The notes: generated from the sequence alone by a model not told the origin. A stretch of DNA of 64,000 nucleotides from Kiritimatiellia bacterium (GCA_016783675.1 JADHWE010000001.1:64955-128954); one strand, 5' to 3'. Counted from the first letter of the stretch, positions 11,177 to 38,598 are shown. Numbers and translations: made by a program.

Positions 11177-11203
11177 CCGCCCGTCTTTTTGACACTGGAT
11201 GTG

Positions 11204-11279
11204 GGGGTATAGCTCAGTTGGTAGAGCGCCTGAATGGCATTCAGGAGGCCAGGAGTTCGAATCTCCTTACCTCCACCAC
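11204..11279 (+). tRNA. tRNA-Ala (anticodon GGC)
   Basis: The cloverleaf was folded by hand. The acceptor GGGGGTA/TACCTCC contains the G3:U70 wobble, the alanine identity element. The anticodon loop is AT-GGC-AT, the T-arm is AGGAGTTCGAATCTCCT, and the CCA is encoded. Confidence 0.9.
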
Positions 11280-11323
11280 TTTTCGCTCCCTACGGGAGTT
11301 GCGGGTGGCAAGCCACATCCATG

Positions 11324-14300
11324 TCACTGACGCTTCTTGTTCTCAAGCCTCTGCAACAGATCCTTGGCGCGGTTGTCTGTGGCAACAGGGCGTTCCGGAT
11401 ATTCCCAGACGGCGTTCAGGTGATTTTCGGCTTCGTCGAGGTCTCCGGTCAAGAGGTAGATTTCCGCCGCATTCAGCGTTACCTCCAGCGTGGAATAGTG
11501 ACCGGGTTCCATGAGGGTGAGCGCGCGCTCCATGTAATCGCGCGCCCGATCGGTCTGTCCAATCCGGAGATAGACCATTGCCGCCGTATCCAGCACAGGG
11601 AAGGATTCCTGGCCCATTTCAAGTAAGAGCGGAAGCAACTCCTGTGCCCGGGAGAGCGTCGAACGATCTTCGAGAAGCGTGTAGATCAAGTTGTTGAGAA
11701 TATTGACACGATCCGGATACATGCTGTAGGCCGACTCAAGGATCTCCACCGCCTTGGTGTGGGCACCCTCAATCCGGGCGGATTCGGCCGCCATCAGCAG
11801 CGACTGCACACGAAGCTTGGACCCCTTTTTGCCTATGACGGGTGCAAGCACGCTCAGCGCGCGACGGGTGTCGCGCTTCTCAAAGTAGACAAATCCCAAC
11901 CTCTCCGCCCACTGCAGCTCCTCCGGGTTGTGCTCGCTCAGGTACTGCAATGCCTTGATGATATCTGTATCCCGCTTGTCACGGGCCCATTTCAACATCA
12001 CCACGGCCCGGTAGAACGGACCGGGATTCTTGGACAGCTCGGACCCGGTCAGGGCACAGGAGAGCGCCCAATCATATTCCTTGAGGGTAAGGCCAGATCG
12101 AATCCCCAGGACATATGCCGGCAGCAATCCCTGGGACTGATCGATTGCGTACCGGGCGGCCGCCGCCGCGGCCTTTGGCATGCCCGAATCAAGAAGGAAG
12201 TCACCCGCCCTCGTGAATGTCTCAGGGGAGAACTGCTGATCTACGACAGCGCTCTTGATTGCAGCCGCAGCCCAGTCGCCCTTTCCTTCGGCCCCGAAAC
12301 GTCCCATCAGGGAGGCCAGCCATATGTCCGGATCGTCAGGACAATGTTCCCGGGCCGCCGCGACAGCCGCACCACGGTCTTCGGAGACCACCATGTGGAT
12401 GCGGCGCAACACCACCGAGTCCGGAATCAACATGAGCCCGGCTTCAACAGCCATGCTCGCCTCCGCATACCGCTCCTGGCGAGCCAGCAGCATCGTCAAC
12501 TGGTGAAGCGCGCCGACCTTCTCCAGGGCGTTCCGCCCGATGGCCTCCCATGCCGCGATGTTGGAAGCAGGCCCCTCCCCTTTCGCACGGCACCAGTCAC
12601 GCGACATGCTGCGCAGGGCAATGACGCAGGGACTCGTCGACTTTTCGAGCTCGGCACCGTATTCGTCGGCTTCACGCACGAATCCTTCCGCATCGAGGGG
12701 AGCCGGCCAGCGTTTGGTCGTCACCAGCCTTGCACGAGGCAGCACCAATCGCTGCCTTTCACCACGCTCACTGCGCACAATACTGACACTCATCGCGTTG
12801 CTCATCCGCTCGGCCTCGCGGTGACGCCCGGTATCGTAGAGCAGTTGCACCAGCACGCGTGGATCAGGGTCCCCCGCCTTGGTCAATACGAAGAGGGCCT
12901 GGTCCTTATACCGGAACACATCCCAGATCGCCGCCAGAGCGGCATGAACGCGTCGCGACCCCGGGTAGGTACGCTGTGCTTCCTTGGCCGTGTGAAGCGC
13001 CGCTGCGCCCATGTTCAAGTTCATGAGCGCATTGATGAACATCAGGTCCGCCCCCAGGCGCGGCTGGTAGTTGGGAAGTGCCCGGTAAGCCACCATGGTC
13101 TCGTAGAGCGCTTGCCAGCGCACCTGTTGGTTCTGGAACACGGCACGCTGGTAGAGAATATCCCGTTTCTTCTCAGGATAGCGCTCCTCCAGCTCCCTCA
13201 GCTTGGCATGGGCTTCTTCATACCTTCCGGCCAGACCCAGTGCGGGGGCTACGGACATCTCCATGCGCTCGTTGAGCGTTCCCTCGGCCGCACGCTTGTC
13301 GATCTCAGCAAAGAAGCGGTCGAGCTGTTCCATTCGCCCTTCCCTGCCGCGTGCGCCGGCCACTGACACTGCCTCAGGAACGTGGTCCCAGAGCGCCTTG
13401 AACGGTGCCAGGTCTCCCGTAGCCTGGTAGAAGCGACGCAGGTCAATTCGCTGGGCAGCACTCTCAGCCTCGATCGAGAGTGTGTGTTTTCGAAACATGA
13501 ACCACATGTCGTGGAAACGCGCCAGCGAGAGATACAGAGCCGGATCGGCAGGGTCTCTCTCGCGCAAGCTCAGCCACGCCAACCAGGCCAGGTCCGCTCG
13601 GCTGAGTCGAAAGGCATAGTCAATGTAGGAGGCCAACCGATCCGCGTTCAACTTGCCGAGGTTCGCGATCAGATTGTCTGCAAACATCGTCTCCCAGCGG
13701 CCGCCCTGCTGACTCATCGCCAGGGAAAAGAGACTGCTCAGGAAACGTGGATCGCCGGGGTGCAGCGCGACGACTTCTTTCATGATTTCAGCAGCACGGG
13801 CAATGTTGCGCATATGCAAGTGCGCTTGCACGGCAACCAGGGAAGGCCCAATGTCTTCGTAGCGCACGGAGGTATTGTCGCACTCGACTATCGTGCTCCA
13901 CTGTTCACGCAGCGCAAGATAGGGAAAGAGCGACCGCACGCGGTCTTGAACCAAGTGCGACCGCGCCGCAATCACAATGCTCTTGTTGACCTGTTCCGGA
14001 ATATCCTTAACGGCCGCAAACTCTGCCATGAGCATGGCAGCGCCCGGTGCTTCGCCTGTATGCCTGGACATCTCCTGGACGACGCCAAAGGCCTCGTCCA
14101 CACGTCCGAGCGACATCAGCGCCCGGCCACGCATCATGGATTCAACAACGTCCAGTGGCGGTTCGAGAGAATCAATGACCACAAGTGTCCGTACGTAGTC
14201 CTGTTTCACGAGGAGCACGTGAGCTTCCTTCATGAGGAGGGCACGGTCGGAAGGCGCGATCGTCAAGGCCGCACGAATGGCCGCATGGGCCGCCTCTATC

Positions 14301-15361
14301 TCATTCTCCAGGAGCAAGTCGATCACCGGGCGTATCATGTTGAGACGGTGACCGGGGCGTTGCTTGTAAATAACGAAGGCTGTGCCAAGCGACACAACGC
14401 CCAAAGCCAATAGCGGCTTCCATACCGAGACCAGCAGGCGCCAGGGACCGGGCAGTGCACGCCCCCGGTCAGGTTTCTCCAGTTCCCCGTCACGGATCCC
14501 CTCGCTTATGCGGCGGCGTTTGTCGCGCACCACCTTGTAGGCCGACACCTCAATCTGGACGATGAGTATAGTGAACAGCAGGAAAGCACCCAGGGTATCG
14601 TGCAGGACCGTCTCGGCCCACTCGCGCGGCATGCGGGGCGCGAAGATTACAACCGCCGCCACCCGCAAGATGTTGAAGAACAACACTTGAACGGCCCCGG
14701 CCAACAGCAGCACAACGCTCTCAAACCAGCGCAGGCGAAAGAGAAACCCGACGCCCAGCGTGCAGAGCGTCACCGTGACAATCGTGCGCATTCCACTACA
14801 GGCCTCGGGAACGCCCAGCGTCAGCAACCCCGTACGCAGGTAGAACCCTTCCGCCCAGACCGGCACATTGAAGCTATAGAGCAACATCTGCGCGCCCTGC
14901 ACCGACATTAACTGCATCCAAAGCTGGAGCTTCCCGAAAACCTGCCCCGGTATGGGGTGCATCCAGTACAGCAGAAACACGGCTATGATGATGTCGCGGC
15001 GGAACTTCTCCGGCAACGCCCAGCGGAGACAGGCGTAGAGCAGCAGAATAATGCCCAACCATTCGAACTGGTGGACGGCCAGAATGGTCCCGCCCAACGA
15101 CAGAAGCGCCCCACCTATCCCCATGGCCAGGGGCAAGAAGGACCCGTGCAAGAAGGGAAGGCGAAACGTCCCGGCATCTGGATGCTGCTCACGCTCAGGC
15201 TTGGGGCGTAGAAGGATCAGGGCAGCGAAGATGGAAACCAGGACTACGCGAATCAGTGCGTCGTCGTCGGCCGCTACGCGATGAAAATTCGTTAGCGCCC
15301 AGACCGCAAAGAGTCCGATTCCCGCGTAAAGGACGCTTTTGCGTGTCCTATTAGAGCTCAT
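11324..15361 (-). CDS. Exosortase (EpsH/Xrt-family) domain fused to about 1000 aa of TPR repeats
   Basis: 1345 aa. The N-terminal ~290 aa are polytopic and carry the exosortase signature GVPEACSGMRT (Cys188, codon 14798-14800), followed by NILRV (Arg233) and LHDTLG (His254). The remainder is a helical-repeat, TPR-like sequence. Confidence 0.7.
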   Translation of the reverse strand: MSSNRTRKSVLYAGIGLFAVWALTNFHRVAADDDALIRVVLVSIFAALILLRPKPEREQHPDAGTFRLPFLHGSFLPLAMGIGGALLSLGGTILAVHQFEWLGIILLLYACLRWALPEKFRRDIIIAVFLLYWMHPIPGQVFGKLQLWMQLMSVQGAQMLLYSFNVPVWAEGFYLRTGLLTLGVPEACSGMRTIVTVTLCTLGVGFLFRLRWFESVVLLLAGAVQVLFFNILRVAAVVIFAPRMPREWAETVLHDTLGAFLLFTILIVQIEVSAYKVVRDKRRRISEGIRDGELEKPDRGRALPGPWRLLVSVWKPLLALGVVSLGTAFVIYKQRPGHRLNMIRPVIDLLLENEIEAAHAAIRAALTIAPSDRALLMKEAHVLLVKQDYVRTLVVIDSLEPPLDVVESMMRGRALMSLGRVDEAFGVVQEMSRHTGEAPGAAMLMAEFAAVKDIPEQVNKSIVIAARSHLVQDRVRSLFPYLALREQWSTIVECDNTSVRYEDIGPSLVAVQAHLHMRNIARAAEIMKEVVALHPGDPRFLSSLFSLAMSQQGGRWETMFADNLIANLGKLNADRLASYIDYAFRLSRADLAWLAWLSLRERDPADPALYLSLARFHDMWFMFRKHTLSIEAESAAQRIDLRRFYQATGDLAPFKALWDHVPEAVSVAGARGREGRMEQLDRFFAEIDKRAAEGTLNERMEMSVAPALGLAGRYEEAHAKLRELEERYPEKKRDILYQRAVFQNQQVRWQALYETMVAYRALPNYQPRLGADLMFINALMNLNMGAAALHTAKEAQRTYPGSRRVHAALAAIWDVFRYKDQALFVLTKAGDPDPRVLVQLLYDTGRHREAERMSNAMSVSIVRSERGERQRLVLPRARLVTTKRWPAPLDAEGFVREADEYGAELEKSTSPCVIALRSMSRDWCRAKGEGPASNIAAWEAIGRNALEKVGALHQLTMLLARQERYAEASMAVEAGLMLIPDSVVLRRIHMVVSEDRGAAVAAAREHCPDDPDIWLASLMGRFGAEGKGDWAAAAIKSAVVDQQFSPETFTRAGDFLLDSGMPKAAAAAARYAIDQSQGLLPAYVLGIRSGLTLKEYDWALSCALTGSELSKNPGPFYRAVVMLKWARDKRDTDIIKALQYLSEHNPEELQWAERLGFVYFEKRDTRRALSVLAPVIGKKGSKLRVQSLLMAAESARIEGAHTKAVEILESAYSMYPDRVNILNNLIYTLLEDRSTLSRAQELLPLLLEMGQESFPVLDTAAMVYLRIGQTDRARDYMERALTLMEPGHYSTLEVTLNAAEIYLLTGDLDEAENHLNAVWEYPERPVATDNRAKDLLQRLENKKRQ

Positions 15362-16775
15362 GGCGGTAGGTTAACAGCACCGAAACAATGTCACGAGTGT
15401 AATCAAGTTGGTCGTTGTCGCCATCCCGCTCAATGTGCTCCGCGAACGCCTCAAGCTTCAGCTCATCGGTCAGGCGCACAACCGGTCCGAGTTTGTACGC
15501 CAAGGTGTCATAGTCGCCGGTAAGCTCAGGATCGAGAAGCGTGACCTGCTCATCATCGTTGGAGCGCTCATTGTAGCGCACCGATCCGACAAGGGAGGCC
15601 GCCGGCATGAGCGGCACCTCGCACAGCAGTCCGCTGGCCCAATCCGTGTAGCCGTTTACGTTGGTCGTACTCGGGTCACGTGTCTGCCAACCCGTATACA
15701 GATTCCACCGGGAGAAATCGCCCGTCCAGCGGAGGTCGTAGCGTAAGAGGTCGAACTCCTCAAGCGACCACTGGTATCCCCCGCGAAGCCCATGGCTATA
15801 GGTGATACCATGCTGCAGATTGGGGCTAAGGTGCGTCTGAAAACCCGCACCGTAGAGGGCCGTATTGACCTCTTCCATACTATTCTCACTGCCGGAGATC
15901 GTTCCCATGGCATGTCCGCCGAAAACATTGAAGGTCGTACGCTCAGTTAAGCGAGTACTGAGATCGACCCGGTAGTCGTTGATAAGCGTGGTGGGTCTGT
16001 CCGACTCGGGATAGTCAATGTGCTCCAGTCCGCCTCGTAGACCGACGATCATGTATTCGGCCACTTCATACTCGTACAGCAGGTACCCGCTGTGTGTTAC
16101 ACGGGCCTGATCCTCCCACTCGTCGTCCAAGGCCCAACGGTCACCGCGCGACACCCCAAAGCCCAAGTTGTGCCGTTCGGCCAGAAGCAAATCACCATCC
16201 AGTCCGATCCTGTTCGAGATATTCTCGAACCGTCGGCCACCGTACCGGTCATCCAGACCGCGCGTATCGAGGTAGTCCATCTGCCATGCGAACCCGTCCC
16301 ACAGACGCATGCGCAGGTACGGAGCCGGCGACATTTCCATGGACAGGTTGGCGTTGATGCCCTCCCCGGGCAGGAACACGCGAAACTCGCTCTCCTGCGT
16401 ATCGAGCGGATAGTACTCGTACCGGAAGCCGAGCGAGACATCCAGGTCCGTGTGCGGCCCAATCACCAGGTAATTCCGGGTATCAAAACCTATGATGATC
16501 GGGTAGTCGGAACCATCCTTCTTGAGGCGCCCCCGCGACCCGGCAAAGAGGAAGTCTGTCCCGATACCGGTCGTGTCAACGTAGCGATACCCGGCTGTCA
16601 GCAGGAAAGCCCAGCTCGAATGGAACGGCCCCAGTTGGACAGTGGCGTATTCCGGTACGGCCACTTCCCGATGGTTGTCATAGCGCAGGTTCTGCGCGCA
16701 TACCGAGCCGCTCGATAGCACGAGCAACAGACCCACCCCAAGCACCCACCATAGCCTTGTGCGTAGCGTCGTCAT
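15351..16775 (-). CDS. Putative outer-membrane beta-barrel protein (possibly exosortase-system associated)
   Basis: It has a signal peptide MTTLRTRLWWVLGVGLLLVLSSGSVCA. The composition is rich in Y, G and D with alternating hydrophobic residues, typical of beta-barrels. Its 3' end overlaps the exosortase start by 11 nt. No family was recognised. Confidence 0.4.
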   Translation of the reverse strand: MTTLRTRLWWVLGVGLLLVLSSGSVCAQNLRYDNHREVAVPEYATVQLGPFHSSWAFLLTAGYRYVDTTGIGTDFLFAGSRGRLKKDGSDYPIIIGFDTRNYLVIGPHTDLDVSLGFRYEYYPLDTQESEFRVFLPGEGINANLSMEMSPAPYLRMRLWDGFAWQMDYLDTRGLDDRYGGRRFENISNRIGLDGDLLLAERHNLGFGVSRGDRWALDDEWEDQARVTHSGYLLYEYEVAEYMIVGLRGGLEHIDYPESDRPTTLINDYRVDLSTRLTERTTFNVFGGHAMGTISGSENSMEEVNTALYGAGFQTHLSPNLQHGITYSHGLRGGYQWSLEEFDLLRYDLRWTGDFSRWNLYTGWQTRDPSTTNVNGYTDWASGLLCEVPLMPAASLVGSVRYNERSNDDEQVTLLDPELTGDYDTLAYKLGPVVRLTDELKLEAFAEHIERDGDNDQLDYTRDIVSVLLTYRHEL

Positions 16776-16861
16776 ATCCTCAAAGCCTACCAGTAGAGCG
16801 GAGCGCAACGCAATGGTAAAGAGATGTAGCCAACGGCCATGCCCGTGGCTTATAGTGGGGA

Positions 16862-17812
16862 ATGCTTAGGCCTGTCTATGCCCTGATCTGCACAGCATTG
16901 GTATTCCAGACGGGAATAGCTGAAGCCGCATCTTCACCGCTACAGCGGGAATCGCTCGATGCTCTTGCGAGGCGTTATGGCTTTGGAACACCACTGCGTA
17001 TGGGTATGGAACGGGTTCTCCGCAGCCAGTACTCCACCGTTGTCTTCACTTCAGGAAGCCGAAAGCTTCGCTTCAACGACACGCTCCTCTGGCTCAACGG
17101 GCCGACACAGAAGGGCTCGAGCAGCTGGACGATCACGCGGTACGACAGTGAAGCGATGCTCGACCCCTTGCTGCGACCTTCCGCGAATGTCCGCGGCGAT
17201 GATATTGCCACGATCGTGCTCGACCCCGGGCATGGCGGATCGGACAGCGGGGCTATCGGTCACCGGCGCGTCTACGAGAAGAAAGCCGTGCTTGATGTGG
17301 CCAAGCGGACGCGTGACATCCTGAAAGCCCAGGGGCTGTCAGTCAGGCTAACGCGGGAGAGCGACTACTTCATACCGCTCGCGAAGCGCACCAGTCTCGC
17401 TCGCCAGTGGGGCGCCGACCTCTTTATCAGTATTCACTTCAATGCGGCGGCCAACTCCAGTGTGTCCGGGATCGAAACCTATGTCTGCTCGTCGCCGGGG
17501 TTTGCGTCCACGATGGGCGGGCGCGCAGACCCGCGGACGTATAAGGGCAACCAGTTCGACAAGAAGAACACGTTGCTGGGGTATTACCTGCACCGCGGCA
17601 TGCTGAAACAGGTGAAAGCGATAGACCGCGGCATCAAGCATGCACGATTCGAAGTTCTACGTAGTGCCCCATGCCCCGCCGCCCTGCTTGAATGCGGCTT
17701 TATCACCAACAAGAGCGAAGCCGCACGGGTAATCAGTCGCCAGCATCGCGCCACACTGGCCAAGGGCATCGCGAACGGCATCATGAGCTACATCGCGAAA
17801 ACGGATAGCTGA
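16862..17812 (+). CDS. N-acetylmuramoyl-L-alanine amidase (Amidase_3, AmiC-like)
   Basis: IVLDPGHGGSDSGAIG, ADLFISIHFNAA and SGIETY are the zinc-binding and catalytic motifs of the family. An N-terminal signal peptide is present. Confidence 0.8.
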   Translation: MLRPVYALICTALVFQTGIAEAASSPLQRESLDALARRYGFGTPLRMGMERVLRSQYSTVVFTSGSRKLRFNDTLLWLNGPTQKGSSSWTITRYDSEAMLDPLLRPSANVRGDDIATIVLDPGHGGSDSGAIGHRRVYEKKAVLDVAKRTRDILKAQGLSVRLTRESDYFIPLAKRTSLARQWGADLFISIHFNAAANSSVSGIETYVCSSPGFASTMGGRADPRTYKGNQFDKKNTLLGYYLHRGMLKQVKAIDRGIKHARFEVLRSAPCPAALLECGFITNKSEAARVISRQHRATLAKGIANGIMSYIAKTDS

Positions 17813-32918: not shown

Positions 32919-34307
32919 TCACGGCAGCAACTCAACAGTCAAGCGATAGAACGCGGGTGGGGTTGCATTGGTGTCCACCATACTGTCGGGACCCCCAATG
33001 CCGACACGAGGTCCATCGCCGAGGACATTGCTCCAGGCACCGTCGACCAGGTTGGTGCGGCTGGCCATCGTGTAGAGGCGGTTTGAGGAGGACTTGAAGT
33101 GGATGGTGACAGGCGAGGCGAAGGTTGCGTTTGTGATTCGAAAGTAGTCATTGCTGTTGGCGCCGTCCGTATCGGCGATCATCTCCTCGTAGTCATTGTG
33201 GGGATCACCGTCCGTGTTGCTATTCGTCGGACTCGTTCCGTACACCATCAGTTCGTCGGCATCAACCAGCCCGTCCCCGTCCGGATCGTACCAGCTTCCA
33301 TCGTACTCATAGGCACCCAGGTCGATGACCGCGTTGATGACGCGCGTTGTACCGTCGAGGTCCGCTGTCAACGCGGCCACGTTCGTTCCCCGGTCAATGC
33401 AGGGCGAACTATAGAGCAGCCGGTAATTCTCGGATCCCGTGTTCGTGAACAGCGGGTTCGCGGTCAGATTACTGGTACCGCCCGGATCGGGAGTGGTGCA
33501 GGCATAGTCGAAACTGTGCCCCACACCGGTAATATCGATATTGTCGTTCGCACCGTCCGAGGTGTTGGCCCAGACGATCGTGTTGCTGACCATGCCGCCG
33601 TAAAGGCAACTTATCCCACCGCCATCTTGCGACGCGTGATTCGCGCTGACCGTACAGTTAAGGATCTCTCCGCCATACGAAAAATCCATCCCTCCTCCCT
33701 GCGCCGAGATGTTGTCGACCACAAGGCAGCTCTCAAGCCGGCCACCCTCATCGTACTCCACTCCCCCGCCGAAGAACCTGGCCGAACAGTCGCGGATGAT
33801 GCATCGTCGCAGTATGCCGCCTCCATCAAAGAGGACACCTCCTCCCGCCCAGTCCAGCCACACGCCGCCGCTGATGAACGTATGCCCATCCTCGATGGTA
33901 AACCCTGTCACAGAGGCGCCATCGACAAGATAGAGGCCACGCACTGCGTAGGGACCATTGCCTTCGAGGTCGCCCAGGTCATCGTAATGGCCGACAATAC
34001 GAGTCACCTCCGGGCCGTTCACGCTAACCAGCGATAGATTCGTGGCAATGCAGACCCGGCTGCTCAATCCCTGCCCGGGCGCCACCGCTCCGCCCACGTC
34101 ATAGACGCCGTTGGTCACGAGGATCGTGTATCCCCCTGACGCCGCGTCCACCGCATTCTGTATAACGTGAAATGCGTTCGACCACGCCGTCCCGGGTCCA
34201 TCAAGGACACTATTGGTCGAAACATACAACGTCTGGGCCGCAGCGCTCCATACACTACACCCCATCAACATCACCACAAGCGCAACAGGATGACTGCCAG
34301 ACCTCAT
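32919..34307 (-). CDS. Secreted right-handed parallel beta-helix protein with Asp-rich (thrombospondin-type-3-like) repeats and a small C-terminal beta domain
   Basis: It has a signal peptide MRSGSHPVALVVMLMGCSVWSAAA and repetitive GGG/NxxxN turns typical of pectate-lyase folds. The Asp-rich stretch is DPDGDGLVDADELMVYGTSPTNSNTDGDPHNDYEE, and the C-terminal ~90 aa end in FYRLTVELLP. Confidence 0.6.
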   Translation of the reverse strand: MRSGSHPVALVVMLMGCSVWSAAAQTLYVSTNSVLDGPGTAWSNAFHVIQNAVDAASGGYTILVTNGVYDVGGAVAPGQGLSSRVCIATNLSLVSVNGPEVTRIVGHYDDLGDLEGNGPYAVRGLYLVDGASVTGFTIEDGHTFISGGVWLDWAGGGVLFDGGGILRRCIIRDCSARFFGGGVEYDEGGRLESCLVVDNISAQGGGMDFSYGGEILNCTVSANHASQDGGGISCLYGGMVSNTIVWANTSDGANDNIDITGVGHSFDYACTTPDPGGTSNLTANPLFTNTGSENYRLLYSSPCIDRGTNVAALTADLDGTTRVINAVIDLGAYEYDGSWYDPDGDGLVDADELMVYGTSPTNSNTDGDPHNDYEEMIADTDGANSNDYFRITNATFASPVTIHFKSSSNRLYTMASRTNLVDGAWSNVLGDGPRVGIGGPDSMVDTNATPPAFYRLTVELLP

Positions 34308-34384
34308 CCACCGGACCCCTACGCCAAGCAGCAACACTCTACTCCTGATCCTGCGTCCCAGTACACAACGCATATCAAGCTCCA

Positions 34385-34448: not shown

Positions 34449-35219
34449 TTACTTCCGGAGGAGACCCTTTATCCCCGTACGAAGTTTTCCACGGAACGTC
34501 ACACCCAGCGAAACCAGCGCAAACGCCAGCACGGCATAGGTCCCGGGCTCCGGGTTGTGCAGTTCAAAGTTGTCGATGCCGTACTCTTCGCTGGAGAAGC
34601 CCTGGTAGGTCAACATGATGCCCATCTGAAGGTCACCACCGTTGTCTCCAAGCACTGTCTCGAAGTCGAGATCATCAGTTCCACCCACGTCTTCTTGCGT
34701 CCAGCCAGCACCGCTCCAGCCCCACCAGCCCACGGTTATGCCGGTGTTCCAATCCGGTGCCGTGATCTGATCGATGATGTCTAACCGCCAGTATGTCGAA
34801 CCACTGTGGAAGAAGAATTCCAAGGCCGCAGGCGCGGTATCTCCACCATCGGAAATGTCCGCGTTCGCCCAAAAGTCGAACGTGACATACATCGCCGCCT
34901 CGGCCACGCTGTTAAAGACAACACTATCCAAGTCCGTTCCACTGGTACCAACTCCAGCATCGGTGAAGATTATGTCCGTGAACCCCCCGGCATCGCCTTC
35001 GTCCTCCAGGATCTGCAAGGCAGTCTGCCCGCCCAGCGAGGCGGAAGGCAGAGGCACATTAGCTTCTGGCGCTCCAGTCTCTCCTGGATAGTCTTCAGCA
35101 CCCCAGCCGTCATTTCCCGAGTCAAACGTGTCGATGAAGGTGGCTGCTCCAGCACCACTGGCAAGGACGCACAGTCCCGCCATCAGCACACACAATTTCA
35201 ATATCACTGTACCCTTCAT
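34449..35219 (-). CDS. PEP-CTERM sorting-domain secreted protein
   Basis: It has a signal peptide. The C-terminus PEPGTYAVLAFALVSLGVTFRGKLRTGIKGLLRK (34452-34553) is PEP, a TM helix and a basic tail, which is the exosortase sorting signal. Confidence 0.8.
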   Translation of the reverse strand: MKGTVILKLCVLMAGLCVLASGAGAATFIDTFDSGNDGWGAEDYPGETGAPEANVPLPSASLGGQTALQILEDEGDAGGFTDIIFTDAGVGTSGTDLDSVVFNSVAEAAMYVTFDFWANADISDGGDTAPAALEFFFHSGSTYWRLDIIDQITAPDWNTGITVGWWGWSGAGWTQEDVGGTDDLDFETVLGDNGGDLQMGIMLTYQGFSSEEYGIDNFELHNPEPGTYAVLAFALVSLGVTFRGKLRTGIKGLLRK

Positions 35220-35224
35220 TGTCT

Positions 35225-36238
35225 CTACTCCTCCTCGATTACAGATACGACCCTATAGAAGTACGGGCCGCCATCGGGATCAGCCGACGTGTCAACCCAT
35301 ACACTCATACCGTCCACGACCGCAAGATCAGCCAAAGTCAGGCCATCACCTACAAGCGCGAACCCTTCAGTCAAGCCCGTGCTGCGGAAGACATTGTACG
35401 ACGCCCAGTCCACGGCCGACGCCCACTGAATCTTCACACCATCCTCGAGCAATTCAACGACTTCAGCAACAAAGCGCGAATCTTTATCGTCCGCGTCCGT
35501 TCCTGTCAAGGTCTCATCCAAGTCCGAAACACCGTCGCCATCGGAGTCCGCGCCACCAGCGGCACCGACATCCGCAATACGCGCAGCCCGGAAGCGGGCC
35601 CAGAGCGCCGCACCCAGCGGTGACAGTTCGCCCGGATGCTCGGTCCCGTTCGAATCCACGAGGACAAAGTCTTTGATCATGAACTGCTGCGCATCGCGAT
35701 TGACCTCAGGCGTGATGTATACACCAAGAGCATCCACGTCGTTGAGGGCCTGCTGCCAGGCCAGGCTCAGGTCCGAAGCCCCCTGGGCACAGAACCATTC
35801 GTCGTCTGCCCGGTCAAAACCCACCTCGTTCTGAACCCACACGCCGGGTTCGGACGAGATCGTCACCTTGCCCGTGTACCACGTCTTTGTGCCATGTACC
35901 AGGATCACAGAGAACTGATCAGGCACGTGCCCGTCCGTAGCGATCTTGAATTTCAGGGAGACAATTCCCGCCTCAACGTAGTTTCCCACGAACGCACCAG
36001 AGGCAACGCCAAGGTTGGCTCCTGCCTTGAGTTCGGGGACATTGCGGTAGGTCGTCTTTCGCGAAGCGAAGTCGACGACCGTTTCGCCGTTGGCGCCAGT
36101 GCTGATTTCTGCCCCACTGGTCGCATATAGCTTTGCCAGGCGAGACACCTGTTGCCCGGGCTGTACCGCGGCGAGGGCGATGCCCACGCAAAGAGCAGTC
36201 AGCACGAAGCTCTGTAGTATGATCTTCTTGTAGTTCAT
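35225..36238 (-). CDS. Secreted protein with an Asp-rich Ca-binding-type repeat and a C-terminal beta domain ending FYRVV
   Basis: It has a signal peptide MNYKKIILQSFVLTALCVGIALAA and the stretch GADSDGDGVSDLDETLTGTDADDKDS. The ~95-aa C-terminal module is shared with the beta-helix protein. The gene starts 5 nt upstream of the PEP-CTERM gene. Confidence 0.55.
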   Translation of the reverse strand: MNYKKIILQSFVLTALCVGIALAAVQPGQQVSRLAKLYATSGAEISTGANGETVVDFASRKTTYRNVPELKAGANLGVASGAFVGNYVEAGIVSLKFKIATDGHVPDQFSVILVHGTKTWYTGKVTISSEPGVWVQNEVGFDRADDEWFCAQGASDLSLAWQQALNDVDALGVYITPEVNRDAQQFMIKDFVLVDSNGTEHPGELSPLGAALWARFRAARIADVGAAGGADSDGDGVSDLDETLTGTDADDKDSRFVAEVVELLEDGVKIQWASAVDWASYNVFRSTGLTEGFALVGDGLTLADLAVVDGMSVWVDTSADPDGGPYFYRVVSVIEEE

Positions 36239-36295: not shown

Positions 36296-38428
36296 CTATA
36301 GAGCCCATGTCACTTCGCCGGTACTCTTCCGGTAGTATGTGAACGCGGTGATACCGGGGCAGATCTCCTTCTCAATGGTGCTGCCCTTGTACTGCCACAG
36401 CGTATCATTCCATTTGAACTTCGTCGTGCGGTACGTGTCCGGATCGTAGAAGAACAGCTCATCGTCCTGCCCAGCATCCGGGAAGGGCTGCATGGTAGCA
36501 TCGTTGATATCGAAGCAATCTCCCAGGTACGTCGGCACAGCAACGTCCGTGCGCCCCGCCGATGAGGCGCCAAGGGAGTCTGCCGTCACCTCGAAGTCTG
36601 TTACTAACGCCGTGACGTTGCTGTACGGGTAGAATGTCAGCGTGTCAGCCCCAGGCAGACGTGTCAGCAAGAGCGGAGTTCCTTCCGTCAATGTGTCATG
36701 GCCTGCCGCTTCCTTGGTTAGTTTGCCACCAGTCACTGTGTAGATCTTATTCGATACCAGTACCGTATCGTTTTCGGACAGGCCAAGCGCCAAATCGTAG
36801 GCCATCTCAGTCGGTAGGTCGGTACCACCATCGTCGAACAGCTTCATGACGTCATAGTTGTACGGCGGGACCTCGGTGATCTGCGCCTGACCGCCCAGAC
36901 GCTCGAAGATCGCAAGGTTGGTGTAGGCCCCATCCGTCGGTTCGTGCGAATAGGAGACAGCAATGGCGTCCACATACGTCGCAACCGAAGACTCGTTCGT
37001 GATGATGAGCTCCGTAAATGCAGTACTGTTGCTACCGAAGGCCATCGGCGATGCATTAAGCTTCTGCATTGAATTCTCGAGATTACCACTGAACGTATAG
37101 TAGAGATCCCACTGGTCGGCGTTATAGTCCAAGTGCGCCGCCAACCCGACCCAAGTACCGTTCGTGAGGTTGTCATCGGTGAGTTCAGGTGTCGTCTTCG
37201 TCCACTCCTGCCCACTGTAGACGTAGAGCGTATTGCTCACGACACAGATAGCCGCCGCTTCGTCGGATACGGCGTTTGAGGGCACTTCCGGACACGCTAC
37301 TGGCTGTACGTAGACCTGACAGAAGATGTTTGTCGCTGTGCCCGTTATGTTCGACACAACAACGCTGATGCCACCGCCCGCAAGCGAGATGCCTCGGCCG
37401 TCTCCGCTTGCGCCACTCATGGCGCCAATGTACTCGCTGTTCTGAATAGCAACGCCATCCACCAATTCGGTCAGGGCCTGGTAGGGAGCGTCGAGCTCAC
37501 CCACACTACCGAAGGTGAACTGCTCGAAGTAGGGAATGACCCAAGAGGCGTCCGAACCGTCGTTGGGGTCGGTACCATCCTGATACTCCTGAGAGTCAGT
37601 CCGTCCGTCGCCGTCAGTGTCCGTCCCTGGACTGTGGTCGGCCACATCACCGAAATGATGCAACTCCCACGAATCCTCGATCCTGTCGAAGTCCTGATCG
37701 CTGCTGAATTCCACGCCCGATGCCCACGTGTCGGAGCCGGGGTAGTTAGAAGCACTAACAGTAATCATGTCGGCATAGACATCGTCCGACAATGTGAGCC
37801 TGGACAGCTCTGTGTTGCCTGTGTCGTAGAAGTCAATATTCTCTTCAACCAGCAGCCCTTTGATGAACAAGTCCCACGTGTCGTTGGAATAGTTCATGTA
37901 TACAGTCACACGCTGCATGTTCGTCTCGCCGCTGTCATTGTCAGTAAGTGTGGCGTCAGTGAGCACAACCCAATTCGCGGGGGGGGTGTCACCGTCAAGG
38001 ACTACGGGATTGCCATTTGTGTTGAAGAAGAACACAGCCGATGATCCACCGACATCAGCCACTGAGCGGTTCGTCTCCACTCCATCATACAGATTGGGCG
38101 AGATCCACATGTCGACCCAAACGTTTGATGTAGCGGTACCGGTCACCGGCGTACCGTTTGTCGCATCAGCATCCTGCGCAACGTACAACAGGTTTGTACC
38201 GGTGGGGTCTGGTTCAGTGCCAACCCAATCCGCGGCCACGGCCGCCTGCAATTGAGTAACAACGGCCGTGCCAGATTGAGCACCCCATCCGCTGGGAAGC
38301 GATCCCTCAGCGGTACCCTCGAAGCTGTCACTATACTGGGGTACGCCCAACACAGAACCAGTCGAGATGGCGATCGCGATCGCGATCACCCATGCACACA
38401 CTTTACAGTGCGAATACAAGTAAGTCAT
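36296..38428 (-). CDS. Large secreted protein, two jelly-roll/LamG-like halves separated by an Asp-rich repeat
   Basis: The start at 38428 is supported by GGAGG 8 nt upstream. It has a signal-like N-terminus, the central stretch TDTDGDGRTDSQEYQDGTDPNDGSD, and a recurring ...WDL[FY]... strand motif in both halves. Confidence 0.5.
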   Translation of the reverse strand: MTYLYSHCKVCAWVIAIAIAISTGSVLGVPQYSDSFEGTAEGSLPSGWGAQSGTAVVTQLQAAVAADWVGTEPDPTGTNLLYVAQDADATNGTPVTGTATSNVWVDMWISPNLYDGVETNRSVADVGGSSAVFFFNTNGNPVVLDGDTPPANWVVLTDATLTDNDSGETNMQRVTVYMNYSNDTWDLFIKGLLVEENIDFYDTGNTELSRLTLSDDVYADMITVSASNYPGSDTWASGVEFSSDQDFDRIEDSWELHHFGDVADHSPGTDTDGDGRTDSQEYQDGTDPNDGSDASWVIPYFEQFTFGSVGELDAPYQALTELVDGVAIQNSEYIGAMSGASGDGRGISLAGGGISVVVSNITGTATNIFCQVYVQPVACPEVPSNAVSDEAAAICVVSNTLYVYSGQEWTKTTPELTDDNLTNGTWVGLAAHLDYNADQWDLYYTFSGNLENSMQKLNASPMAFGSNSTAFTELIITNESSVATYVDAIAVSYSHEPTDGAYTNLAIFERLGGQAQITEVPPYNYDVMKLFDDGGTDLPTEMAYDLALGLSENDTVLVSNKIYTVTGGKLTKEAAGHDTLTEGTPLLLTRLPGADTLTFYPYSNVTALVTDFEVTADSLGASSAGRTDVAVPTYLGDCFDINDATMQPFPDAGQDDELFFYDPDTYRTTKFKWNDTLWQYKGSTIEKEICPGITAFTYYRKSTGEVTWAL

Positions 38429-38598
38429 AGTTGTAACCTCCAAACAGACTTTTACTATCTGGAACGATTATGGCAGAAAGGGGAGGCGCAGGTCAATGGA
38501 AAAATGGGCGGAATTAGGGAAAATCCCCTAGTGATGCGGCTGACCGGACAAGTAGCTGCAAATCAACGACTAACGCAGTGTAACGACATCATACACCC

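Follow-up and report, generated by a model that had tools for sequence, protein, structure and literature searches.

What is the function of an exosortase that carries some thousand residues of tetratricopeptide repeat (TPR)-like protein at its C-terminus? The question is posed by a 64,000-nucleotide stretch of DNA from a Kiritimatiellia bacterium (GCA_016783675.1 JADHWE010000001.1:64955-128954; hereafter the window, with positions counted from its first letter), in which a prediction made from the sequence alone had described a 1345-residue open reading frame (ORF) of this architecture. We find that ORF at 11324-15361(−), supported by its translation, by homologues and by independent contigs, and refer to its product as the fusion. 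Judged from its sequence, the fusion is best read as an unnamed exosortase subtype confined to Kiritimatiellia. As to what it does, the account that we favour, as a probable one that leaves considerable room for doubt, is that it is a sorting transpeptidase whose PrsT/LbcA-like arm recruits cargo and couples the processing of that cargo to an outer-membrane export apparatus.

Residues 1-276 (14534-15361(−)) make up the exosortase catalytic domain. The Pfam model Exosortase_EpsH (PF09721) aligns with residues 39-267 and scores 102.3 bits, its cut-off being 25.7, and the NCBIfam exosortase/archaeosortase signature TIGR04178 reaches 43.9 bits against 23, so that profile hidden Markov models (HMMs) bear out the domain on which the original prediction depended. 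The three motifs that it had named are all present: EACSGMR with Cys188 (14798-14800(−)), NILRV with Arg233 (14663-14665(−)) and LHDTLG with His254 (14600-14602(−)), each codon having been verified. These three residues, together with Asn230, are invariant in an alignment of 21 diverse relatives, down to 29% identity. Hydropathy finds eight transmembrane (TM) helices in the domain, with 3, 4 and 2 Lys/Arg residues in the short, putatively cytoplasmic loops. In the topology predicted from hydropathy and the positive-inside rule, with the N-terminus inside, helices 6, 7 and 8 carry Cys188, Arg233 and His254 at their periplasmic ends.

The domain is followed by a putatively cytoplasmic, Lys/Arg-rich linker (residues 277-309, 10 Lys/Arg) and a ninth TM helix (residues 310-332), identified by hydropathy and charge count at 14366-14533(−), and then by an RPxHR motif; His338, within the motif, is invariant in the homologue alignment. 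The remaining 1013 residues are predicted to be periplasmic. PrsT and LbcA are periplasmic lipoproteins, and such a topology of the arm fits with them, as it does with a TPR-only paralogue anchored by an equivalent of the ninth helix. This paralogue is a 721-residue ORF in the same genome (C5:35201-37366(−); C and L numbers denote contigs of this genome and compared loci, respectively), with a single N-terminal TM helix, the motif in the form RPSHR, a shortened TPR arm and no exosortase domain. Its arm is closest to that of a clade-B fusion (see below) and it lies 170 nt from the contig end, and it may be a naturally unfused arm, or what remains of a gene that has been split.

The arm itself (residues 333-1345, 11327-14365(−)) was examined with AlphaFold2, Foldseek, HMMs and hhalign. 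An AlphaFold2 model built on 43 sequences is a continuous, all-alpha solenoid of helix pairs, with ∼58 helices and two short irregular inserts (mean predicted local distance difference test (pLDDT) 89.9, predicted template modelling score (pTM) 0.71), and its fold neighbours in Foldseek are the long TPR proteins IFT139, Ski3, Ctr9 and OGT. The original claim of about 1000 residues of TPR solenoid is thus upheld by the model as regards the solenoid, while canonical TPRs are detected by HMMs in only the last ∼200 residues. On general TPR geometry, ∼29 helix pairs could in principle be long enough to span the periplasm. Many invariant Trp and Pro residues are spread along the arm in the homologue alignments. 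The TPR region has no lipobox, and an internal TM helix precedes the arm in place of a lipoprotein signal peptide.

The C-terminal module of the arm (residues ∼1129-1320), in which LNNL and DT motifs are invariant, is the part that resembles PrsT and LbcA. The best NCBIfam TPR match is to PrsT (TIGR02917), residues 1129-1318 aligning with model positions 717-897, although at 55.8 bits against a cut-off of 312.2, and over this module only, the arm does not qualify as a PrsT orthologue. A profile of the arm aligns by hhalign with the PrsT of the same genome over 585 columns, the LNNL...DT motifs included (97% probability, E 7e-11), and the best sequence match in the PDB is to residues 422-539 of LbcA/PA4667 (E 1.6e-18).

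No named exosortase subfamily claims the fusion. The highest-scoring models are XrtD (70.2 bits against a cut-off of 400), XrtA (57.7 against 208), XrtV (50.4 against 313), XrtW (49.3 against 425) and XrtB (31.8 against 275), and all others, across XrtB-XrtW and the cyanoexosortases, score lower; the architecture is therefore not one that a defined subfamily already covers. Neither EpsI (TIGR02914) nor DUF3485 is matched by the fusion or by the products of adjacent genes. By these sequence criteria the fusion is a member of the exosortase superfamily that belongs to no named subfamily, and in source annotations its homologues are merely an "archaeosortase/exosortase family protein". Our literature search, whose coverage did not extend to the 2012 survey of exosortase diversity, found no paper on an exosortase-TPR fusion, nor on exosortases or PEP-CTERM proteins in Kiritimatiellota, and the founding paper (Haft et al. 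2006, PMC1569441) mentions only CAAX-protease fusions.

The fusion nevertheless has a family of its own. A word-indexed search recovered 73 full-length homologues of 1290-1650 residues at 30-85% identity. When 1.84 billion cluster representatives were scanned exhaustively by HMMER with residues 1-420, the family being counted as 50%-identity clusters, 146 proteins were returned at E≤1e-30 and just 188 at E≤1e-10; the family is thus sharply separated from ordinary exosortases, and nearly all of its members have 1290-1690 residues. We assembled 60 fusion loci, taking one genome per GTDB species. All come from uncultured organisms, as metagenome-assembled genomes (MAGs) or, in one case, a single-amplified genome (SAG), and carry the source labels Kiritimatiellia, Lentisphaerae, Verrucomicrobiota or Planctomycetes-Verrucomicrobia-Chlamydiae (PVC). 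Across 301 genomes of the phylum, the fusion is confined to the class Kiritimatiellia. Trees resolve three clades, the window's protein falling in the largest of them, clade A; paralogous fusions of clades B and C are present in the same genome at C32:28053-31946(+) and C73:1474-5568(−).

The gene upstream of the fusion encodes an outer-membrane beta-barrel (15351-16775(−); AlphaFold2, signal peptide). The original prediction gave this ORF 485 residues, and a reading frame of that extent does exist (15351-16808(−)), being open as far as a TTG at 16808. We think, on sequence grounds, that the true start is probably the ATG at 16775, since this yields 474 residues, the length of the closest homologues, and has GAGG just upstream. 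The stop codon (TAA, 15351-15353) lies inside the fusion gene, which begins with the ATG at 15361, so the claimed overlap of 11 nt is exact. A signal peptide ending ...SVCA/QN and an AlphaFold2 model with ∼22 strands (pLDDT 80.8, pTM 0.72) agree with the suggestion that this is an exported barrel protein. What kind of barrel is less clear: Foldseek against the PDB returned only generic barrels (template modelling score ≤0.43), such that no specific transporter family could be assigned, and no Pfam family matches. Weak matches to TIGR03016, the PEP-CTERM system-associated outer-membrane protein, occur in 7 of 19 barrel homologues (best E 5e-7) and EpsL is matched in three of the 19, while the window's protein reaches 18.7 bits with TIGR03016, below the cut-off of 90.85. 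An 86-nt spacer (16776-16861) separates the probable barrel start from a divergent N-acetylmuramoyl-L-alanine amidase gene (16862-17812), and the promoters of both genes must therefore sit within it. We saw no convincing promoter consensus in this spacer. A scan of the window for the sigma-54 (−24/−12) consensus gave chance-level counts and found none in front of either the operon or the cargo cassette (described below), and sigma-70 and terminator scans were likewise at chance level.

Barrel and fusion are closely linked. In an even sample of 151 genomes of the class, each is present in 26 and 25 of these genomes are shared (Fisher p 3e-26, not corrected for phylogeny), with one barrel per genome and one to three fusions. 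Of the 60 fusion loci, 39, all of clade A, have a barrel homologue as the next gene upstream, in the same orientation. The spacing ranges from the 11-nt overlap, which recurs in 7 loci, to a gap of ∼200 nt, save for one gap of 636 nt.

The pair had been suggested to form a two-gene unit spanning the envelope. Comparison with relatives shows that it is not self-contained, since there it forms part of a Wzy-type polysaccharide operon. The genes that come next in 14-16 clade-A loci specify a Wza-like exporter (best matches TIGR03027 and EpsE), a Wzc-like autokinase/co-polymerase (TIGR03018, TIGR03007), a priming glycosylphosphotransferase (TIGR03025, 322 bits, over the cut-off of 295) and a Wzy-like protein. 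The usual clade-A order is barrel, fusion, Wza, Wzc, glycosyltransferase; otherwise, the fusion gene has a cargo cassette of three genes beside it. In 16 of the 60 loci the fusion gene adjoins one for a small PEP-CTERM protein, always of the same family, which is mostly convergent and 35-500 nt downstream, and the barrel and PEP-CTERM contexts never coincide. It is this alternation of the fusion gene between polysaccharide operon and cargo cassette that ties fusion, operon and cassette together. In the window's lineage, the barrel-fusion pair now sits beside amiC-like, carAB, pyrG and purF genes.

Directly upstream of the barrel, the polysaccharide operon also conserves a polytopic membrane protein of 520-630 residues, which we call u569 (for example L020:6777-8486, L007:4816-6384 and L075:10563-12452, and in L076-L078). 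It belongs to no Pfam or NCBIfam family. It has an N-terminal DEGWY-like motif, which we take, as a guess from the sequence, to recall GT-C glycosyltransferases. No homologue was found in the window's own genome, the assembly of which is incomplete.

The probable cognate cargo of the fusion is a 256-residue secreted protein encoded at 34449-35219(−), which ends in a divergent PEP-CTERM tail, YGIDNFELHNPEPGTY, with a TM segment and basic residues. It scores 13.7 bits with TIGR02595 and 17.9 bits with PF07589, both just below cut-off. As originally claimed, it is the only PEP-CTERM substrate in the window. That there should be just one is no puzzle, because the gene belongs to a cassette that abuts clade-A fusions in other genomes. 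The other members of the cassette encode a 337-residue secreted protein (35225-36238(−)), homologous over its full length to a cargo neighbour in the clade-C locus L008, and a 715-residue secreted protein with a TSP3-type repeat (36296-38443(−); weak TSP3_bac match). The order 715-like, 337-like, cargo, which occupies 38443-34449(−) in the window, adjoins a clade-A fusion in L018 and L022, and it is these two loci that encode, directly beside the fusion, the closest relatives of the window's cargo.

Across the genome we count four PEP-CTERM proteins, three of which are paralogues of ∼240-256 residues sharing the motifs FDFW, IDWIG and YG(L/I)DNF; the genome, which is 71.6% complete, thus holds three fusions and three cargo paralogues. 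The two paralogues outside the window (∼240 residues) are encoded convergently and immediately downstream of the C32 and C73 fusions, at C32:31967-32695 and C73:795-1517, and clades B and C each adjoin one PEP-CTERM gene of the cargo family. In the family alignment the P-E-P...Arg tail is invariant. The residues that follow PEP differ by clade, being G/E-T-Y/F in clade A, GEIALA in clade B and AEYALA in clade C, and this tracking of enzyme clade by cargo tail suggests, at the level of sequence, dedicated enzyme-substrate pairs. The cargo domain family is present in 21 of the 26 fusion genomes. Pfam and NCBIfam hold no family for the cargo domain or for the 337-residue protein, and a profile of the cargo family found no match among PDB sequences.

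Two further observations concern the neighbours of cargo genes. At L008:14043-20170(−), in a Lentisphaerae MAG, the cargo gene and that of a 326-residue neighbour are followed by a gene for a protein of 9613 residues. In the window, a 484-residue secreted protein is encoded beside the cassette (32919-34373(−)), with a weak match, within an Asp-rich repeat, to the calcium-binding domain called Binary_toxB in Pfam (21.5 bits against a cut-off of 25); this region is most likely a TSP3-type calcium-binding repeat, as in its neighbours.

Does the fusion stand in for the classical, unfused exosortase system? Beside its three fusion genes the genome retains an operon for PrsK, PrsR, an exosortase and PrsT (C44:21777-29530, locus L010:3778-11531), in which PrsK (TIGR02916, 374 bits against 300), PrsR (TIGR02915, 619 against 503) and PrsT (TIGR02917, 377 against 312) all exceed their cut-offs. 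The exosortase has 310 residues and is closest to XrtC (208 bits against 300), and the gene for the 1076-residue PrsT overlaps that of the exosortase. A further, short exosortase is encoded on contig C28 with an EpsI-like gene next to it. Since the classical system has been kept, the fusion is no substitute for it.

The order of the C44 genes, exosortase and then PrsT, is the order of the domains in the fusion. A recent fusion of this pair can nonetheless be rejected: the exosortase domain of the fusion has 29% identity with the C44 exosortase across 98 residues and does not align with the C28 exosortase. Because the exosortase domains are so distantly related, the fusion is old, and not the product of a recent joining in this genome. 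The original prediction took the single polypeptide as a Rosetta stone, implying that exosortase and PrsT act together physically. This is a reasonable idea, given that the arm aligns with the genome's own PrsT and that the order is the same, but it must be qualified by the arm being no PrsT orthologue and the exosortase only a distant relative of the PrsT-adjacent one. What the fusion suggests is direct contact, in their work, between two parts that classical systems encode as separate genes.

Comparison with better-known systems helps to define what is particular to the fusion. As in the XrtA/EpsH system (PMC1569441; TIGR03109, TIGR02602), an exosortase that bears a Cys/Arg/His triad, and is here predicted to be polytopic, is encoded in a polysaccharide locus, alongside genes for an outer-membrane protein of its own, a Wza-like exporter, a priming transferase and a tyrosine autokinase/co-polymerase, and the secreted substrates end in PEP, a TM segment and basic residues. 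The fusion differs from that system in falling short of the XrtA cut-off, as described above, and of that of 8TM_EpsH (53.6 bits against 105.6), in having no EpsI partner or domain, and in having the ninth TM helix and ∼1010 residues of predicted periplasmic TPR arm. Its substrates, moreover, are few, of one family and often one per enzyme, whereas those of XrtA are many and diverse. PrsT is a large periplasmic TPR protein tied to exosortase systems, as the arm is predicted to be, and has the LNNL...DT module in common with the arm, but is held by a lipid anchor, while the arm is held by a TM helix joined to the enzyme. A precedent in architecture is provided by the exosortase-EpsI fusions (XrtD, TIGR04152; XrtW, NF038142; EpsI, TIGR02914), whose plan, an eight-TM exosortase, an extra TM helix and a periplasmic accessory domain, is also the one predicted here; there the accessory is an EpsI domain of ∼170 residues, here a TPR solenoid of ∼1000.

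For the role of the arm, parallels are offered by LbcA (PA4667)-CtpA (PDB 8sxe/7rqf) and NlpI-Prc, where a TPR scaffold offers substrates to a periplasm-facing protease, which is the role that we propose for the arm. In those cases adaptor and serine C-terminal processing protease are separate soluble or lipoprotein partners, whereas in the fusion the adaptor is covalently joined to what is predicted to be a membrane-embedded cysteine transpeptidase. The barrel resembles the TIGR03016 and EpsL (TIGR03014) proteins in its signal peptide, its large beta-barrel and its exosortase-linked polysaccharide loci, but scores far under cut-off and is encoded by a gene translationally coupled to that of the exosortase. 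TPR-plus-barrel exporters include AlgK/AlgE, BcsC, PgaA and PelB, which serve alginate, cellulose, poly-N-acetylglucosamine and Pel, and the Slam proteins are translocons for surface lipoproteins. These also pair a periplasmic TPR scaffold with an outer-membrane barrel that delivers polymer or protein to the surface. In them, however, the TPR is fused to or docked on the barrel rather than tethered to an inner-membrane enzyme, and the fusion-linked barrel is a separate protein without detectable homology to theirs.

In the mechanism that we propose, the small PEP-CTERM cargo (34449-35219) would be exported by Sec and retained in the inner membrane by its C-terminal helix. The TPR arm would capture it, perhaps along with its partners from the cassette, and present it to the Cys188 site, where the exosortase would cut at the PEP motif by way of a Cys188 thioester. 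The cargo would then be handed to an acceptor, probably nascent exopolysaccharide (EPS) or lipid, and the arm would link this processing to the co-transcribed barrel and the Wza/Wzc apparatus, bringing the product to the cell surface. We favour a role for the arm in substrate handling because clades B and C have the arm in loci with neither EPS genes nor barrel, and because cargo tails are clade-specific.

Several observations weigh against this account. The window's cargo cassette lies 19 kb away from its fusion gene, and contigs other than the window's (C90, C5) carry the genes for Wza, Wzc and the transferase, so that here the linkage to EPS and cargo rests on relatives. The cargo domain family is wider than the fusion, being found in 53 of the 151 class genomes compared with 26. 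The PrsT match of the arm is below the family cut-off, and TPR profiles cross-match readily. That the arm binds cargo, barrel or Wza is a prediction. At least four genomes retain the operon of u569-type membrane protein and barrel where the fusion gene is missing, followed by Wza in two of them (L075, L077), and one genome (G099) has a clade-C fusion yet no barrel. Both facts mean that the barrel may serve the polysaccharide rather than a protein.

There are two alternative explanations that deserve serious consideration. The first is that polysaccharide is exported through arm and barrel together, in the manner of AlgK/AlgE, BcsC or PgaA, with the exosortase merely attaching or trimming proteins at the inner membrane and the arm binding no protein cargo. 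It is kept alive by the persistence of the barrel in the u569-barrel-Wza-Wzc-transferase operon where the fusion gene is absent, and by the clade-A fusion genes that lie between barrel and Wza genes in the 14-16 loci described above; such exporters are, besides, well established for alginate, cellulose, poly-N-acetylglucosamine and Pel. AlgE is among the Foldseek matches of the barrel, but is no better a match than porin or TonB-dependent receptor barrels. The operon, moreover, is of the Wzy/Wza type, in which outer-membrane export is already provided for and TPR-barrel pairs are not the norm; the same arm occurs in clades B and C, whose fusion genes adjoin cargo genes only; and the closest solved relative of the arm is a protease-substrate adaptor. 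We therefore consider a polysaccharide route unlikely, though a competitor to be reckoned with.

The second would make the TPR region an appendage for regulation or stability, without trans-envelope contact, and would attribute the adjacency of the barrel only to co-expression in an EPS regulon. The appendage might then sense the state of the envelope or polysaccharide, control access to the active site or bring enzyme molecules together as oligomers. PrsT, which is genetically required for floc formation in the wastewater bacterium Aquincola (PMC9850573), was at first placed with the regulators PrsK and PrsR by phylogenetic profile (PMC1569441), and the invariant Trp and Pro residues of the arm are as compatible with rigid structure as with binding. 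Mere co-regulation, however, would not lead us to expect an 11-nt overlap that recurs in distant relatives, nor near-perfect co-occurrence of barrel and fusion, and the co-variation of cargo tails with fusion clades points to substrate recognition. A purely regulatory or stabilising arm thus strikes us as improbable.

We regard it as scarcely credible that an error of assembly or sequencing has made one ORF out of two genes, or that the ORF encodes a pseudo-enzyme in decay: the window does come from a MAG in 113 contigs and of limited completeness, but in Logan the contigs of three independent studies (aquatic 2020, estuary 2023, marine 2024) span 11249-17000 with 0-1 substitutions, zero indels and zero joints, leaving the ORF intact and excluding mis-assembly or frameshift as its origin, the architecture is common to the 60 loci from independent MAGs and the SAG and recurs in more than 60 independent assemblies overall, and invariance extends to the catalytic triad and to dozens of positions in the arm. 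At a tRNA-Ala gene (anticodon GGC, 11203-11278(+)), in the 290 nt that separate a PtsN-like gene from the fusion gene's 3' end, the Logan contigs of all three runs end and word depth rises about tenfold, as is to be expected of a sequence shared with other organisms.

The preferred reading, of a sorting transpeptidase that recruits cargo through its arm, bears on matters that have stood for some twenty years since the PEP-CTERM/exosortase system was predicted, namely the acceptor of the reaction, the route of the product across the outer membrane and the role of PrsT. Current annotation pipelines give this unnamed subfamily a generic label only. A conserved natural fusion, the translational coupling of its gene to that of an EpsL-like barrel, and its alternation between operon and cassette together make the family a concrete and testable model of how exosortases are coupled to the envelope, and its few substrates, with their clade-specific tails, suit experiments on specificity. 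A bolder generalisation, which we put forward as possible while doubting it more than we believe it, is that PrsT-type TPR proteins are the periplasmic substrate-handling arms of exosortases rather than regulators, and that in Kiritimatiellia the arm, tethered in the inner membrane, the EpsL-like barrel and Wza/Wzc would make up a trans-envelope machine that moves a PEP-CTERM protein across the outer membrane, the Sec-exported protein being transferred, perhaps covalently, onto the growing polysaccharide. If true, this would amount to a distinct Gram-negative route of surface display, in which enzyme-cargo pairs would be specified by the residues just after PEP.

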